Position numbers and translations under genes: made by a program
Assembly: GCA_963712535.1 (NCBI GenBank)
Contig: CAVQIK010000012.1
Span: forward strand, 88,135-152,134
DNA length: 64,000 nt
Direction of reading: 5' to 3'
From: an uncultured delta proteobacterium
GTDB taxonomy: Bacteria > Desulfobacterota > SM23-61
Shown: piece after piece, positions 5,886 to 62,047 of the stretch
How positions within the stretch are numbered: the stretch's first letter is position 1
How the letters are laid out: each line of letters opens with the position of its first letter
Notes under the pieces: generated by a model
Told to the model about the DNA's origin: nothing
The model's database searches: none
The model's input: the letters and a program-made list of their open reading frames with translations, nothing else

Positions 5886-6312
5886 AAATATAGTCAGCGT
5901 CAGAAGAAAGTAGTCATGCCTCCTGACATCACGTCCAGAAATTCCCCCCGGCCCGCTGAAGCTGTGAAAAAATCCAGGACCGGGAGTCCTGATCCAGGAG
6001 ACGGCGAAAATTCCGGCCAAAAAAGGCACGATCTTCTTTGCCCATGGTGTGCTGACTTATGCAACCCGAAATTGAAATCACATTGCATTTAGCGAAAGTA
6101 GCCCGTCTGCCGGCGTTCCTTGGCGGAACTCAGATGACCCATGAGGAAAGGTATCCGCCGGTTCTGCCGGCAATTTTCGCCGCTTGGCAACGGAGGGGCG
6201 ATCGGATTTCAGCCCTTATCAAGGGGGGCAGGGGGATTTCGCGGACTTCATATCTGAAGTCCACCGTTCACTATAACCATTCACACACCTCAAGAAAAGA
6301 GAGGGAAAGACA

Positions 6313-7164
6313 ATGAAGAAAGTCACGATCCACACGTTGCTGGAGAAAAAGCAGAAGAAAGAGCCCATCACCTGGCTGACGGCCTATGATTATCCCATGG
6401 CCCAGATGGAAGAGAAGGCGGAAATCGACATCATTTTGGTCGGGGACTCGATCGGGATGACGGTTTATGGTTACGATTCCACTCTCCCTGTAACCATGGA
6501 CCTCCTGATTCCGCATACCCGGGCGGTGCGGAAAGGGGCCCCCAACGTTTTCCTCATCGGCGATATGCCCTACATGACCTACCAGATCAATAAAGAGGAG
6601 GCCATCCGGAACGCCGGCCGCTTCATGGCGGAATGCGGCTGCGACGCCATCAAGCTGGAAGGCGGAAGAGAGGTGGTGGATACGGTGAAGGGGCTGATCA
6701 AAGCCACGATTCCGGTGGTTGCGCACCTGGGCCTGACCCCCCAGTCCATTGCCATGTTCGGGGGCTTCAAGGCGCAGGGCCGGGACGCTTTCGGGGCCCT
6801 GCGGATCATCGAGGATTCAAAGGCCCTGGAAGAGGCCGGAGTCTGTATGATCCTGCTGGAGGCCGTTCCTCCGGAAGTGGGAAGAATCGTAACCGAACGG
6901 GCCAAAGTTCCGGTGATCGGCATCGGCGCGGGCCCCTACTGCGACGGTCAATGCCTGGTGGTTCACGATATGCTGGGGATGTTCGAGGCGTTTACTCCGA
7001 AGTTCGCCAAAAAGTATGTAGATCTCCGGGAACACACGGTCAAGGCTTTCCAGGTGTTTAAAGAAGACGTGAAAAAAGGAGAGTTCCCAAAAACAGAACA
7101 TTGTTACCGCATGCCAGCCGAGGAAGTGAAAAAACTCGAGGAGATGCTGAAAGGGAAAGCGTAA
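6313..7164 (+). CDS. panB: 3-methyl-2-oxobutanoate hydroxymethyltransferase (PanB), copy 1
   Basis: Canonical PanB pattern: LTAYD, LVGDSIGM, AIKLEGG, HLGLTPQS, GGFKAQGR, IGIGAGPYCDGQCLV, TPKFAKKY. Confidence 0.9.
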   Translation: MKKVTIHTLLEKKQKKEPITWLTAYDYPMAQMEEKAEIDIILVGDSIGMTVYGYDSTLPVTMDLLIPHTRAVRKGAPNVFLIGDMPYMTYQINKEEAIRNAGRFMAECGCDAIKLEGGREVVDTVKGLIKATIPVVAHLGLTPQSIAMFGGFKAQGRDAFGALRIIEDSKALEEAGVCMILLEAVPPEVGRIVTERAKVPVIGIGAGPYCDGQCLVVHDMLGMFEAFTPKFAKKYVDLREHTVKAFQVFKEDVKKGEFPKTEHCYRMPAEEVKKLEEMLKGKA

Positions 7165-16217: not shown

Positions 16218-17072
16218 TCAACTTCGCCCCTTCAGTATCTCCTCTAGTTTTTTCACTTCTTCATCAGGCATTCGGTAGCAATGCTCCGGTTTCGGAAATT
16301 CTGCTTTATTTACCTCACCCTGGAACGTCTGAAAGGCCTTGACGATCTGCTCGTGAATATCCGCATACTTTTTTGCGAATTTCGGGGTAAAGGCCTCGAA
16401 CATCCCGAGCAGGTCATGAACGACCAGGCATTGGCCGTCGCAATAAGGGCCCGCGCCTATGCCGATGACCGGAACCTTGGACCGTTCAGTGACGATTTTC
16501 CCAACTTCCGGGGGAACCGCTTCCAGCAGGATCATGCAGACTCCCGCCTCCTCCAGGGCTTTTGAATCTTCAATGATCCGCAAGGCGCCGGCGGCGTCGC
16601 GGCCCTGGGCCTTAAACCCCCCAAACATGGCGATGGACTGGGGCGTCAACCCTAAGTGAGCCACCACTGGAATCGTCGCCTTGATCAAAGCCTTGACCGT
16701 GTCCACGACCTCCCTTCCGCCTTCCAGTTTGATCGCCTCGCACCCGCACTCAGCCATGAAACGGCCAGCATTGCGGATCGCTTCTTCCTTGCTGACCTGG
16801 TAGGTCATATAGGGCATGTCGCCGATGAGAAAGACGTTCGGAGCTCCCTTTCGCACCGCGCGGGTATGAGGGATTAGAAGATCCATGGTGACCGGCAAAG
16901 TGGAATCATAGCCATAAACGGTCATGCCGATCGAATCCCCTACGAGAATGATATCGATGCCCGCCTTCTCCTCCATCTGGGCCATGGGAAAATCGTAAGC
17001 GGTAAGCCAGGTAATGGGCTCTTTCTTGTGCTTCTTTTCCATCAAGGTATGAATGGTCACTTTTTTCATAGT
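16218..17072 (-). CDS. panB: 3-methyl-2-oxobutanoate hydroxymethyltransferase (PanB), copy 2
   Basis: Same PanB motifs as copy 1. By hand alignment, 28 differences over 283 aa. Start taken at MKKVTIHTLM (17072) rather than the listed 17126. Confidence 0.9.
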   Translation of the reverse strand, partial: TMKKVTIHTLMEKKHKKEPITWLTAYDFPMAQMEEKAGIDIILVGDSIGMTVYGYDSTLPVTMDLLIPHTRAVRKGAPNVFLIGDMPYMTYQVSKEEAIRNAGRFMAECGCEAIKLEGGREVVDTVKALIKATIPVVAHLGLTPQSIAMFGGFKAQGRDAAGALRIIEDSKALEEAGVCMILLEAVPPEVGKIVTERSKVPVIGIGAGPYCDGQCLVVHDLLGMFEAFTPKFAKKYADIHEQIVKAFQTFQGEVNKAEFPKPEHCYRMPDEEVKKLEEILKGRS

Positions 17073-17591
17073 CTTCCCTTTCTGTTCAGATGCTGCAAAT
17101 TTATCAAATAGGGTAAACAAAGCCACAAGATAAGAGTCGATTCATAGCTCACAGCCCAACTGTAGCCTATTTTCACTCGTGATAATTTTTATTCGAATCC
17201 CGACATCCTGTCAACGGATTTATTCCACTTTGTCCGCCACGGCTGAAGCAACCGTAAAGGAGAGTTTATGATTTATTAAAACTTTCGCTTAGAGACGCAG
17301 AGGCGCAGGGAATCGCAAAAACAGACCGAAATAATTTGCGCCCCCGGCGGCTCTGCGGGAGATTTCCTTCAGCCTTTTCCCTCCCCTCGGCCTAGCGCGT
17401 CTTTAACAATTTCTCTCCATTTCTGACATTCGTCAAGGCCAAAAGGTAATCGGAATGGGAATGGTACGATATAGGGAGGGAGGGAGGGGGCAGAAAGGCG
17501 TGGAGAAGCGCCTTCACGGAAGGATCGGGGGAGGAAAAAGGATCTTATGGCTCTCGAGCGTTCTCCCTCTCTATAGCGTTGTAAAAAATCC

Positions 17592-37580: not shown

Positions 37581-37680
37581 TCGCCCCTTTTTTAAAGGGT
37601 CGGGCGGGGGGGATTTCTGACCCAGCCTGTCCAAGAAAATCCCCCCTCCCCCCTTTGCCAAGGAGGGGGGAATTTTTGGA
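37581..37680. repeat. G/C-run hairpin repeat units related to families A/B
   Basis: CCCCTTTTTTAAAGGG..GGGGGGGATTTCTGA and AAAATCCCCCCTCCCCCCTTTGCCAAGGAGGGGGGAATTTTT, inside a 460-nt gap within the ABC operon. Confidence 0.6.
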
Positions 37681-45925: not shown

Positions 45926-47260
45926 ATGAATTCCCGGGAAAGAGTGAAAAAAGCGATTTCCCACGAACTGCCGGACAAGGTCCCTTTTGACCTGGGGAGC
46001 ACGACCGTCACCGGCATCCACGCTATTGCCTACGGAAACCTGAAACGGGCCTTCAAACTGCAAGGCGGGATGACGAAAGTATACGAACCATTTCAAATGC
46101 TCGCTGAAGTGGAAGATTCGGTGAGAAAAGCCCTGGGGGTTGATACGTTCGGGATTCAGCTCCCCTACACTCCATTCGGGTTCAAGAACGAGGATTGGAA
46201 AACCTGGAAGATGCCGGACGGCACCGAGGTCCTCGTTTCCGGCCATTTCACCTTCGACCTGGATCGCGACGGGTCGATCCTCCTTTACCCCCAGGGAGAC
46301 CGGAGCGTCCCGCCTTCGGGAAGAATGCCCAAGGACGGGTTCTATTTTGACAACGTCATCCGGCAGCCCCCTCTTCGCGAAAGAGACCTCGACCCCAGAG
46401 AGTGGGTTAAGCAAACCTACTTCCTCTATACGGACGAAGACCTGCGGTACCTCGAGAAGCTCGCCGCCTGGGCCTACGGGGAGACCGAATACTCCCTGGT
46501 GGGCATCCTGCCGGAGGGCTCCCTCGGGGATATCGCCGTCGTCCCCGGGCCGCACATAAAATCTCCGAAAGGAGTCCGGGACCCCCAGGAGTGGTACGTC
46601 TCTTTTCTGAAGAGGAAAAATTACCTCCAGGATATCTTCGGCTACCAAACCGAATTGGCCCTGAAGAATTTGAAAGGCTTTCATGAAGCCGTCGGCGGCC
46701 GGATCGACGTTCTCGACGTAAGCGAGGCCGATTTCGGGACCCAGGAAGGGCCGCTCTTATCCCCGAAGCTCTTCCGGGAACTGTTCAAACCCTTCTTCCG
46801 GGAGATGAACGACTGGGTCCACAAGAACACCCCCTGGAAAACGTTCTACCACAGCTGCGGCTCCGTCGCCGAGCTGCTGGAAGATTTTATCGAAATGGGA
46901 GCGGACATTATCAACCCGATCCAGTACCGGGCCGCCGGCATGGATCTCGAATTTTTAAAAAAAGAATACGGAGACAGAATCGTATTCTGGGGAGGGGCGG
47001 TGGAGACCCAGCGGATTCTCCCCTTCGGGAGCCCGGAAGAGGTGAGGGATGAGGTGATCAAGAACCTGGAAATCCTTTCCCAAAAAGGAGGATATGTTTT
47101 CGCCTCCATTCACAACATCCAGCCCGATGTGCCAGGCCAGAACTTGAAAGCTATGATCGAAACTTTTAACGAGTGGAGAGAGCCCGGAAGATTCGCAGGT
47201 CGAAGCGGTGTTGAAGCTTTTCAAAAAGGGAATAAGGCGCCGGAGGAGGGAGCAAAATGA
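45926..47260 (+). CDS. uroporphyrinogen-decarboxylase (URO-D) superfamily protein (MtaA/CmuA-like fold), function unknown
   Basis: N-terminal RERVKKAISHELPDKVPFDLG and C-terminal HSCGSV...GADIINPIQ resemble URO-D-family members. AAAGGAGG RBS before ATG 45926. Confidence 0.7.
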   Translation: MNSRERVKKAISHELPDKVPFDLGSTTVTGIHAIAYGNLKRAFKLQGGMTKVYEPFQMLAEVEDSVRKALGVDTFGIQLPYTPFGFKNEDWKTWKMPDGTEVLVSGHFTFDLDRDGSILLYPQGDRSVPPSGRMPKDGFYFDNVIRQPPLRERDLDPREWVKQTYFLYTDEDLRYLEKLAAWAYGETEYSLVGILPEGSLGDIAVVPGPHIKSPKGVRDPQEWYVSFLKRKNYLQDIFGYQTELALKNLKGFHEAVGGRIDVLDVSEADFGTQEGPLLSPKLFRELFKPFFREMNDWVHKNTPWKTFYHSCGSVAELLEDFIEMGADIINPIQYRAAGMDLEFLKKEYGDRIVFWGGAVETQRILPFGSPEEVRDEVIKNLEILSQKGGYVFASIHNIQPDVPGQNLKAMIETFNEWREPGRFAGRSGVEAFQKGNKAPEEGAK

Positions 47261-48267
47261 AAGAACCCCGTTTTGCTGTCTGCAGGCCGGAGGATTTCAA
47301 GAGATACTGGGATGGCGTGTTGGATACCGTCCGGAAGTTCGATCCCGAACCTCGCATTGAAAAGTGGGAGCAGGAGGACCCGAACTTCGAAGATGAGTAC
47401 ATCCTGGATGGTCCGGTGCGGGGACCGGGCAAGCAACCGCAGGAAGTTAACCCTTTCGATTTCCGCTGGGACAGCCACGTCATCATCACCGGCCTGACGG
47501 TGAAAAGGGTACGCTTTGCTTCCTACGACGGCCAGGAAGTGGGCGGCCTGCTGCAGCAGCCGCGCTACTCCCGAAAAGAGCATTTCCCCGGGATCGTCCA
47601 TTTTGCCGGGTACGGGGGCGAAGTGCTCATCGATTCCGATTTCGTAAGCTCCGGTTACTCGGTCTTCAATTTTTCCCACCGCGGCATGCTCCTGGGCAGC
47701 AGGAACTTCGACCGTTATTCCCCGACCCCCCTTTTAGTGCGCCACATCGAAGACCCGGACCGCTACATTTACCGGTCCATCGTCATCGATTCCCTTCTCG
47801 CACTGAAGGCCATGGCCAAGCTGGGAAACGTCGACCCCCGGCGCGTGGCCGTTTTGGGGACGAGCCAGGGCGGGGCTCTGGCAGTCATAACCGCCGCGCT
47901 GGATGCTCAGGTCCGGGCGGCAGCCTGCGACCTTCCCTGGCTGACCGATTTTGAGTACCTGGTCGAACATCCCCTGGAAGGCCCGAACAACGAACTGAAA
48001 GAATTTTTGACAAGGTTCCCGGAAAAAGCGAATGCCGCGGCCCGCACCCTCGGGTACTTCGACGCCCTCTCGTTCGCGGAGCAAATTGAAAAACCGGTAT
48101 TGGTGTCCCTGGGGCAGGAAGACCATCTCGCCCCCCCTCCCGCCGTGAGGAAGCTTTTTGAACGAATTCCGTCGGTGAAACTTCTCCTGGAGATCCCCGG
48201 AATGGGCCATGAAAGAAGCACCCTCTTCCGCAACCTGGCGCAGAAATGGTTTGATTTTTTCGTTTGA
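47257..48267 (+). CDS. acetyl xylan esterase / cephalosporin-C deacetylase family (AXE1, alpha/beta hydrolase)
   Basis: DF..YW N-terminus, GTSQGGALAV nucleophile elbow, C-terminal GH. Its ATG overlaps the upstream stop (ATGA). Confidence 0.8.
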   Translation: MKEPRFAVCRPEDFKRYWDGVLDTVRKFDPEPRIEKWEQEDPNFEDEYILDGPVRGPGKQPQEVNPFDFRWDSHVIITGLTVKRVRFASYDGQEVGGLLQQPRYSRKEHFPGIVHFAGYGGEVLIDSDFVSSGYSVFNFSHRGMLLGSRNFDRYSPTPLLVRHIEDPDRYIYRSIVIDSLLALKAMAKLGNVDPRRVAVLGTSQGGALAVITAALDAQVRAAACDLPWLTDFEYLVEHPLEGPNNELKEFLTRFPEKANAAARTLGYFDALSFAEQIEKPVLVSLGQEDHLAPPPAVRKLFERIPSVKLLLEIPGMGHERSTLFRNLAQKWFDFFV

Positions 48268-48307
48268 TTTTGGTTTCATTTATCGCTGCCTCTGCTTCAA
48301 CCTAAAA

Positions 48308-48458
48308 CTATAGTGCCCGACGAAAGAAAGTGGACATTGCATGTTAGGCAATCCCGGTAAATCCCCCCACCCCCCCTTTGTCAAAGGGGGGCAAGGGGGG
48401 ATTTTGCGGGTCAACCAGAGGCCAACAGCATGTCAACTTATTTAAGTCGTTCAATATA
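48308..48458 (-). mobile_element. family-B MITE-like palindromic element, copy B1
   Basis: 151 bp. Reverse complement is nearly identical to 61799..61949. Termini are CTATAGTGCCCGAC / GTCGTTCAATATA. Central hairpin AAATCCCCCCACCCCCCCTTTGTCAAAGGGGGGCAAGGGGGGATTT. Confidence 0.8.
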
Positions 48459-48478
48459 ATAATGATTGGGAGGTCATC

Positions 48479-49202
48479 ATGAAAGCGGGAGAGACTGGGC
48501 TTACCCAGAAACTGGAGAAGTTTTCTCGAAAAGGGGGTGCGGACCTTTTCGGCGTGGCCGACCTGGGTTTGGCCGTCGATTTCATCGCTTCTCAATGCCC
48601 TTCCTGGGTCGGAGCTTTCCCCCGGGCCGTTTCGCTGGGTATGCAGGTCAACGCTGGAATCGCCGAGCAGCACGATCCCAACGAGCCGCGCCATCTCAGC
48701 ATGTACTGGTTCCATGTGTACGAGGTCGTCTCCCCGGCGCTGAACTTCCTGGCTTACGATACGGCCCGCTGGCTCACCGCCAAGGGCTTCAAGGCTTTCC
48801 CGATCCCGGCCTCCATGCCTTATGATCCCGGCAAAGCTCATGGGCGTCTTCTCCCACAAGCTCGGCGCCCACCTCGCCGGCCTGGGATGGATCGGAAAGA
48901 GCTGTCTTCTCCTCACCGACCGGTTCGGCCCCCGGGTCCGCTTTGTCTCCGTGCTCACCGACGCTCCCCTGGAAACGGGCTCCCCCCTGGACCGGCCCTG
49001 CGGAAAATGCCGCGCCTGCGTAGACGCTTGCCCGGCGAAAGCGTTCACCGGAGCCGAATTTCACCCGGAAGAGCCGCGCGAGGTCCGGTTCGACGTTTTC
49101 AAATGCAGCGAATTCCGTAAAGGGCACCCCTGCGGGGTTTGCGTCTCCACCTGCCCCCGGGGAAAACGGTCCCGCAACTCCGGAAAAGGGGTTTCCGGAT
49201 AG
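48479..49202 (+). pseudogene. QueG-like / reductive-dehalogenase-related 4Fe-4S protein, one frameshift
   Basis: N-part ORF 48479.. ends in nonsense. It continues in another frame as AKLMGVFSHKLGAHLAGLGWIGKSCLLLT...CGKCRACVDACP...CGVCVSTCP. Extra base near 48829. Confidence 0.55.
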
Positions 49203-58195: not shown

Positions 58196-58345
58196 GGACC
58201 ATCGTGGGCTCTTAAATCAGAGAATTCGTTCTCTAGGTTCCGAAAAGTCTAGAAGCAAAATGTGGGGGAGGCCCTCCCGCCTAGGCGGGACCGCCCGCAA
58301 GATAGGCAACTACGGGGAGTTGCCCCCAGCATTTAAAGCCCAATT

Positions 58346-58503
58346 ATAGTGAACGGCTCAAGTAAGTCGACATCCAGTTGCCTCTTATTGACTTATGTCT
58401 CGCCGTAAAATCCCCCCTGCCCCCCTTTGATAAAGGGGGGTTTGGGGGGATTTACCAGGGATTGCCCAATGCAATGTCCACTTTCTTTGGTCGGGCACCA
58501 TAA
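58346..58503 (+). mobile_element. family-B MITE-like element, copy B3
   Basis: TATAGTGAACGG...AAAATCCCCCCTGCCCCCCTTTGATAAAGGGGGGTTTGGGGGGATTT...GGTCGGGCACCATAAC. Same orientation as B2. Its right end abuts the stop codon of the decayed acyl-CoA synthetase. Confidence 0.8.
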
Positions 58504-60054: not shown

Positions 60055-60205
60055 GTTAGCAGTTTGCTGAAAAACCCAATTCAGGAGGTCATTGCGAGGA
60101 GCGCAAGCGGACGCGGCAATCTGATTTTCTTTGATTTTTTTCTGGATCAGATTGCTTCGCTTCGCTCGCAAAGACAGCTCAAAGAGTTTTTCAGCAAACT
60201 GTTAG
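60055..60205. repeat. 151-bp element with 16-21-bp terminal inverted repeats and an internal palindrome
   Basis: GTTAGCAGTTTGCTGAAAAAC (60055-60075) versus GTTTTTCAGCAAACTGTTAG (60186-60205). Inner CATTGCGAGGAGCGCAAGCGGACGCGGCAATCTGAT / ATCAGATTGCTTCGCTTCGCTCGCAA (IARSEATKQS/IASLRSQ-type motif). Confidence 0.6.
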
Positions 60206-61798: not shown

Positions 61799-61949
61799 TA
61801 TAGTGAACGACTTAAATAAGTTGACATGCTGTTGGCCTCTGGTTGACCCGCAAAATCCCCCCTTGCCCCCCTTTGATAAAGGGGGGGTGGGGGGATTTAC
61901 CGGGATTGCCTAACATGCAATGTCCACTTTCTTTCGTCGGGCACTATAG
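61799..61949 (+). mobile_element. family-B MITE-like element, copy B2
   Basis: 151 bp. TATAGTGAACGAC...GTCGGGCACTATAG termini. The arms are imperfect inverted repeats of each other around AAAATCCCCCCTTGCCCCCCTTTGATAAAGGGGGGGTGGGGGGATTT. Confidence 0.8.
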
Positions 61950-62047
61950 GTAGTTTCGATCTCACACTTTCGTCACCCCACCCCCGCCCTCCCCCGTCAA
62001 AAGGGGAGGGAAATTTCGGGCTTTCGGATGAAAACAAACTATTCGTC

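Follow-up and report, generated by a model that had tools for sequence, protein, structure and literature searches.

Bacterial MITEs are defined in reviews as elements shorter than 200 bp with TIRs, 5'-TA-3' ends, a target duplication and a transcript that forms a long stem-loop (PMC2229807, PMC10969869). RUP of pneumococcus, present in about a hundred copies, has a TIR listed as 9 bp and IS630-Spn1 as its proposed mobiliser (PMC2229807). The Correia elements (CREE/NEMIS) of Neisseria come in classes of about 105 and 155 bp, duplicate TA and lack any mobilising enzyme so far found in the host genome (PMC2649163, PMC5039591); their IHF site has been proposed to help the ends meet (PMC2649163). 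In Geobacter uraniireducens the MITE Chunjie, of 178-235 bp, has been recently active; its full copies and its partial copies each number in the tens, and most of them lie between genes (PMC10969869).

Here we analysed a window, that is, one whole stretch of 64,000 nucleotides (C12:88135-152134; C denotes a contig) from a 5.95-Mb assembly in 22 contigs of an uncultured Desulfobacterota lineage. It harbours three copies of an element that fits the definition of bacterial MITEs given in those reviews, being small, non-coding and multi-copy, with IS630-matching TIRs and with insertion into and duplication of TA. Very probably these copies belong to a non-coding, TA-duplicating MITE family of IS630 type, with about 90 copies, which was moved in trans by an IS630-family transposase absent from the assembly. 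It is an ordinary bacterial MITE family of a well-known kind, and the current view of MITEs is unchanged by it; points of some interest are the missing resident transposase, the TIR found across phyla and the interchangeable central palindromes. The system of RUP and IS630-Spn1, and likewise Nezha of cyanobacteria, is alike in its size of 100-200 bp, its TA insertion, its IS630-matching TIRs, its mostly intergenic location and its roughly one hundred copies. The RUP sequence is unrelated, however, and here the genome has no resident cognate IS, and the element has a longer TIR, of 29 bp, and a G6/C6 hairpin at its centre. The Correia elements share the size class, the TA duplication, the long TIRs and a central structural module, but their centre is an IHF site instead of a G/C hairpin and the host here is an uncultured Desulfobacterota lineage; moreover, while Correia ends form promoters together with the flank and Correia elements undergo RNase III processing, the likeness in our element consists of predicted consensus hexamers. 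The first 7 bases of the Correia TIR (TATAGTGGATTAA...) are identical to the TATAGTG of the MITE, and beyond them the TIRs differ (PMC5039591). Comparison of both MITE ends with the 26-bp Correia repeat, TATAGTGGATTAA(C/A)..., gave no agreement beyond these 7 nt, and since only the tip is common the element does not belong to the Correia elements. Chunjie is similar by description (a host from the former Deltaproteobacteria, copy numbers, intergenic location), and we claim no relationship with it.

Architecture of the element and its copies in the window

The original prediction placed three palindromic copies at 48308-48458, 58346-58503 and 61799-61949, the first one inverted with respect to the other two. 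All three were present in those orientations, and their limits could be refined as follows, together with the parts of the element and its remnants in the window:

48309-48458, minus strand: MITE copy B1, 150-bp subfamily (limits count the TA at both ends)
58345-58502, plus strand: MITE copy B2, 157/158-bp subfamily (limits count the terminal TA)
61799-61948, plus strand: MITE copy B3, 150-bp subfamily (limits count the terminal TA)
48359-48404 (B1), 58408-58453 (B2) and 61853-61898 (B3), no strand assigned: two-tier G6/C6 hairpin module, from alignment and folding
61799-61827, plus strand: 29-bp TIR, end A, TATAGTGAACGACTTAAATAAGTTGACAT, identical at 27 of 29 positions to the left end of a 1139-bp IS
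61920-61948, minus strand: 29-bp TIR, end B, TATAGTGCCCGACGAAAGAAAGTGGACAT in the minus-strand reading, from the TIR pattern
6222-6275, plus strand: 5'-truncated MITE of a fifth subfamily, with half a hairpin and a TIR end at 6263-6275
37581-37680, no strand assigned: two degenerate solo G/C hairpin units without TATAGTG termini, in a spacer of a Dpp/Opp-type operon

The element consists of two 29-bp TIRs, short linkers and the central G6/C6 hairpin, and encodes nothing. Its termini, TATAGTG(A/C)(A/C)CG(A/G)C ... G(T/C)CG(G/T)(G/T)CACTATA, agreed with those proposed, with variation at one base (A/G and T/C) added, and the central hairpin matched the proposed AAATCCCCCC-nn-CCCCCC-TTTGnnAAA-GGGGGG-nn-GGGGGGATTT in all three copies. 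The TIR is the presumed transposase binding site, and the asymmetry between ends A and B is also present in MITEs of other phyla. Folding of the whole element as RNA or single-stranded DNA gave a single long hairpin for each of the two orientations (-78.3 and -74.6 kcal/mol; z = -8.5 and -7.5).

B1 and B3 were 99% complementary across 152 nt, with the right terminus of B1 mutated to CAATATA. B3 did not differ from the consensus of the 150-bp subfamily, and more genomic copies were 100% identical to it over 150-152 nt. A 10-bp insert assigned B2 to a second subfamily, the 157/158-bp class, which is the commonest in the genome. Allowing up to one mismatch, TATAGTGNNCGNC had 9 matches in the window against 0.94 expected; six of them were the ends of B1-B3 and another was the end of the truncated copy at 6263-6275. 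This truncated copy lies 37 nt upstream of the ATG at 6313, whose gene has an inverted duplicate at 16227-17078. Fragments of the same G/C-run core had also been listed at 6222-6245, 37581-37680 and 61985-62010: the first of these is part of the truncated copy and the second corresponds to the degenerate hairpins, while the third is a different G/C-run hairpin, in which BLAST detected no similarity to that of the MITE.

B1 is preceded by an AXE1-type esterase gene, which stops at 48267, and followed by the start of gene 48479-49120. A position between divergent genes was considered and rejected, the minus-strand ORF 47734-48279 having no family hit and the upstream neighbour being the plus-strand AXE1 gene (47257-48267). 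B2 has on one side the end of a DUF4382 gene (58195) and on the other the stop of a decayed gene for an acyl-CoA synthetase, and B3 lies 46 nt upstream of the start of a minus-strand PrpD-like gene (61752) and downstream of the stop of an HpaB-like gene (62048). In a search for orthologous empty sites, the gene downstream of B1 was conserved in 11 relatives and the upstream neighbour was not. The 213-aa protein encoded by 48479-49120 had no Pfam hit, and its homologues in 11 genomes of the family aligned as two pieces in different frames (aa 1-122 and aa 120-213), so that either the gene in the window is a variant produced by fusion or frameshifting, or its relatives require a frameshift.

Copy number, insertion site and genomic location

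The family had been proposed to be genome-wide, and this was the case. By blastn we found 62 full copies, 18 partial ones and 214 further loci with the 46-nt hairpin alone. The genome was also searched with a 29-nt end pattern, TATAGTGNNCGNCNNAANNAANNNGNCAT, which matched exactly at 130 positions against 0 for the reversed control, and at 190 positions against 2 when up to 3 mismatches were allowed. Pairing of opposite ends found with up to 3 mismatches yielded 87 complete TIR-bounded elements and 16 solo ends, the elements measuring 145-177 bp and making up 0.24% of the genome. Their lengths clustered at 150, 157, 165 and 176 bp, defining four subfamilies that have the TIRs and the central hairpin in common and are joined by unrelated linkers; within subfamilies the median pairwise identity was 97-99%, and several copies were identical.

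At C19:52200-52673, outside the window, a 312-bp insert with ends AGCTGTGAAAAAAT... / ...ATTTTTTCACAGCT interrupts the central G/C hairpin of a 157-bp-type MITE; another small element seems to target the MITE hairpin. In addition, a repeat of about 555 bp with ends like ...GGGCATAAGCGCTAACTTA... occurs inside G/C hairpins in 15 copies (C2:42110-42688 and 14 more).

Alignment of all full copies revealed sharp ends, the similarity stopping at Y|TATAGTG ... CACTATA|R. Many copies are inserted inside other repeats, which supplied paralogous empty sites, and in at least 5 independent cases the empty site consisted of the left flank, TA and the right flank. Examples are GCGCCAAC-TA-AGTGAAAT, with at least 5 empty copies and filled at C21:24075, and CTCCGAAC-TA-AATTACTCC, filled at C14:28242; in one host repeat, a member of another subfamily occupied the identical TA in a different copy. 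Since the empty sites lack the second TA, TA was duplicated on insertion, as the original prediction had suspected. The logo of the 87 elements (A62% A56% Y95% | TA | R98% T52% T64%) described a palindromic target, AAY-TA-RTT. As a side observation, CTAA/TTAG accounted for 38 of 60 insertion targets, against 9 for the palindromic CTAG and 7 for TTAA, an excess over the half-site prediction which possibly reflects a genomic scarcity of CTAG.

Intergenic locations were found for 59 of the 62 full copies defined by blastn, although the spacers between genes of at least 150 aa represent 24% of the genome. Tandem, divergent and convergent spacers contained 38, 12 and 9 copies, respectively, against 60, 21 and 19% of the spacer length, that is, without bias. 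Because this split follows spacer length, the intergenic pattern argues for purifying selection against genic insertions, not for selection of a regulatory role. The same data bear on a different explanation, in which the palindromes would be a conserved cis-regulatory RNA or a bidirectional terminator, held in place by selection and not mobile. The high stability of the fold, whichever orientation is taken (-78 and -75 kcal/mol), the AAAA/TTTT-like runs beside the hairpin and the intergenic position of the copies would all suit such a role, but the explanation is largely refuted by the paralogous empty sites with TA duplication. Moreover, both orientations are represented among the copies, all spacer types contain them in the numbers that spacer length predicts, some copies are inserted in other repeats, and Rfam gave 0 matches at the gathering score in the window; at E values up to 1, it returned only chance hairpin matches, far below the gathering score of each family. 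No position bias towards a terminator or promoter role was detected among the 62 copies, and the terminator scan did not call the hairpin because its T run is too short. Nor were the sites fixed and orthologous, an outcome that the original prediction had named as speaking against mobility, the copies being located in unrelated intergenic regions. We therefore hold a stationary regulatory RNA or terminator to be extremely improbable, and a mobile MITE remains our preferred reading.

Insertion may nonetheless affect neighbouring genes. Owing to the target consensus, 87 of 174 outward junctions read TATAAT or TATAGT, and in front of 50 of the 174 ends a gene starts no more than 150 nt away, 23 of these 50 ends having one of the two hexamers. 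At the left end of B2, an outward TCGACT-16-TATAAT (58370->58343) matches 10 of 12 positions of the sigma-70 consensus, the best score in 15.5 kb of the window, and at B1 the junction TATAAT (48455-48460) precedes the ATG at 48479 by 18 nt, with an RBS, GGGAGG (48468-48473), in between. The -35-like hexamers of the outward sites are weak (2-4 of 6 positions). From their sequence, the junction TATA(A/G)T hexamers may function as outward -10 boxes.

The missing transposase and its relatives elsewhere

The window had been predicted to contain no transposase, which proved correct, and the whole assembly lacked such a gene as well: a PF13358 search for an IS630-type gene in the 5.95 Mb gave 0 hits, and tblastn of the same genome with three TIR-matching transposase sequences returned nothing below E = 0.04. 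No TIR was present at the contig ends of the assembly. A survey of the genomic repeats of at least 500 bp disclosed repeat-domain proteins, Y1 transposases, an IS91-like unit, a group II intron and the 555-bp cassettes, and no IS with TATAGTG ends. Two pairs of the TIR scan were examined as candidate ISs and rejected: C5:126362-127269 turned out to be an ordinary gene, and C22:28445-29040 is a MITE that contains nested inserts. With a CheckM-type completeness of 75.6%, absence of the gene from the assembly is no proof of its loss. As there is no resident partner, the link with IS630 is based on TIR identity and TA duplication.

IS630 genes were present in 7 of the 17 genomes of the same GTDB family. 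Their ends differ from the MITE TIR (GACACATAAGTATCGC... in L044, TAATACAAACGCATTAAATAATGTTACA in G003), so they were rejected as partners of the MITE and regarded as relatives only. One of these genomes, the MAG G003, has about 15 TIR ends, together with an IS630 homologue of 38-48% identity whose tips, TAATACAAACGCATTAAATAATGTTACA, are related to those of the MITE but different.

The original prediction had suggested looking for an IS whose inverted repeats match those of the MITE. Such ISs do exist and encode IS630-family transposases, but in genomes other than the host. A scan of 185,579 species genomes with the 29-nt pattern gave at least 90 loci. Among the matches listed, the majority were MITEs of 125-160 bp, and the TIR occurred in Desulfobacterota/'Deltaproteobacteria' (Syntrophaceae, Syntrophobacteraceae, Desulfobacteraceae and Syntrophorhabdaceae), Nitrospinota, Nitrospirota (Nitrospira and Thermodesulfovibrionia) and Planctomycetota (Brocadia); other families and phyla also have genomes with the identical 29-mer of end A. 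Of 201 genomes sampled evenly from the window's phylum, 8 matched, the host with 130 matches and the others with 1-2, and the host genome is thus an outlier in TIR number. Also among the matches listed, a few Clostridia records (L072, L106, L110, L111 and L127) corresponded to short palindromes of about 38 bp, TATAGTGAACGTCAAAAATAATTTGACATTCACTATAA, made of two TIR tips back to back, which are either minimal elements or unrelated operator-like palindromes.

Autonomous partner ISs, of 1139-1156 bp, came from other MAGs and from metagenomes. In the MAG 'uncultured delta proteobacterium MFD04492.bin.2.115' we found seven copies of a 1139-bp IS (L091), the five compared being identical. They are flanked by TA at AAY-TA-RTT-like sites and have ends TATAGTGAACGTCTTAAATAAGTGGACAT / TATAGTTAACGCCATAAATAAGTAGACAT, the first of which agrees with MITE end A as listed above. 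At a run of eight A (TTAAAAAAAACT in L091), its coding region is divided into two ORFs with HTH_29/32/33 and DDE_3 domains, each of which matches one half of NF033545, 'IS630 family transposase'. In a metagenomic IS of 1149 bp (L211), both TATAGTG ends fit the 29-nt pattern and a single intact ORF of 331 aa scored 190.9 bits with NF033545 (cut-off 100). The metagenome scan also recovered a further two-ORF version, and because it comes from a separate data set, it points to a natural frameshift at the A run. Altogether the split at this run was seen in three independent elements (L091, L213 and L069) and the ORFs were fused in L211, which suggests programmed frameshifting or transcriptional slippage. 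In the IS, a TTGACA-like hexamer within the TIR (TAGACA) lies 17 nt upstream of a TATAAT, so that the TIR overlaps the inward transposase promoter and the TTGACA of MITE end A corresponds to that -35 position. MITE and IS are similar over the 29-bp TIR only, and by sequence comparison no simple deletion within the IS found would yield the MITE. The MAG bearing the IS has no MITE, and the genome rich in MITEs has no IS; a plasmid collection queried with the IS and viral contigs queried with the TIR pattern gave no match.

These ISs also allow us to weigh whether the MITE could belong to another transposase family that duplicates 2-4 bp at YTAR-like sites, such as a subgroup of the IS5 family, its match to IS630 ends being coincidental. 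Both the YTAR-like target and the lack of a resident IS630 gene would agree with this, but 27 of 29 TIR positions are common with IS630 elements that are flanked by TA at AAY-TA-RTT-like sites, several independent TIR-matching ISs all encode IS630 transposases, and no multi-copy IS5-like element was present among the long repeats of the genome. A coincidental match consequently appears very remote, and we retain the IS630-type MITE as our interpretation. In the mechanism that we propose, an IS630-family DDE transposase acting in trans would bind both TIRs through N-terminal helix-turn-helix domains, cut the element out and paste it into the TA of an AAY-TA-RTT site, with TA being duplicated; these catalytic steps are modelled on what is known of IS630/Tc1-mariner elements. 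The four subfamilies would have multiplied recently to about 90 copies, selection would have left them almost solely between genes, and the cognate transposase gene would either have been lost or lie in the unassembled part of the genome. Given that the assembly lacks this gene, the present copies have probably been left stranded.

The central hairpin as a separate module

The original prediction had further proposed a modular recombination between this element and a second type of repeat, family A. The modularity was evident: the G6/C6 hairpin has 294 genomic loci, 214 of them outside full or partial MITE copies, and was found in all four MITE subfamilies between unrelated linkers and in at least 4 other repeat clusters of the genome, including family A, so that it is common to at least five repeat families and also exists solo. 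The proposal is supported in part, with capture, recombination and insertion all being candidates for the entry of the hairpin into these families. At 90-98% identity the hairpin extends to most genera of the GTDB family and to seven other families of the phylum, several of which are without any TATAGTG end and have it solo, in unrelated flanks. Conversely, the TIR-sharing MITEs of other phyla contain a different central palindrome, GTCATTGCGAGG...CCTCGCAATGAC. One more element of the window is to be considered in this context:

60055-60205: element D, ends TTAGCAGTTTGCTGAAAAAC / GTTTTTCAGCAAACTGTTAG, inner palindrome GTCATTGCGAGGAGCG...CGCTCGCAAAGAC

TATAGTG-ended MITEs of Nitrospinota, Nitrospirota and Planctomycetota have the palindrome of element D as their core, but the ends of element D are different.

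A short, G/C-rich imperfect palindrome that is intergenic, solo and present at hundreds of loci resembles the unit of REP, BIME or REPIN sequences. The family could accordingly be read as REP/REPIN-type palindromes spread as single-stranded hairpins by a resident Y1 (IS200/RAYT-like) transposase, and the genome does contain at least 12 Y1-type genes and about 294 loci of the G6/C6 hairpin, which is also present solo, without TIRs, in other families of the phylum. Three near-identical units of 1.1 kb (C14:181495-182595, C15:86297-87395 and C4:418019-419036) each encode a 350-aa Y1 protein and are bounded by GGGGGACGTTCGTGCAGAAATTGCTT. REPINs mobilised by RAYTs lack such TIRs and a target duplication, however, and RAYT genes are typically flanked by their own REPs, whereas our element carries 29-bp IS630-matching TIRs and a TA duplication, and none of 16 tblastn matches to Y1-type proteins had a G6/C6 hairpin within 1.5 kb. 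The full element is no REP/REPIN, and we consider its spread by a Y1 enzyme very unlikely; a REP/RAYT reading could apply to the solo hairpin module, not to the MITE. For the MITE itself, we infer that the likeliest roles of the hairpin are to pair the ends of a very short element or to act on read-through transcripts.

A bolder interpretation, which we put forward as a rather doubtful one, is that these MITEs are mosaics of two layers, in which the ends of one IS630 clade repeatedly capture between them a palindrome that is maintained independently throughout a phylum, the central palindrome being functionally required. If so, the captured palindrome would be the G6/C6 hairpin here and GTCATTGCGAGG...CCTCGCAATGAC in other phyla, and it might act, for example, by cruciform extrusion that joins the ends, as is thought of IHF in Correia elements; the TIR of that IS630 clade is conserved over at least 4 phyla. 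To our knowledge, the mobiliser of the Neisseria Correia elements has never been found. A corollary of the mosaic interpretation, no less tentative, is that the TATAGTG-tipped IS630 clade would be the kind of enzyme which once moved them.

For annotation, the family amounts to about 90 intergenic blocks of 150-176 bp which, with the many spurious ORFs over them, can be masked, and the hexamers at half of the junctions bear on gene-start and promoter calls. For the biology of the group, it provides a clean worked case of a MITE in an uncultured Desulfobacterota lineage, in which a credible parent IS has been defined along with the ends, the target, the duplication and the subfamilies of the element, and an example of a massive MITE expansion that survives in a genome without its transposase. 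Its 29-bp TIR is conserved not only in Desulfobacterota but also in Nitrospinota, Nitrospirota and Planctomycetota, and its modularity lies in the combination of one set of TIRs with different central palindromes.
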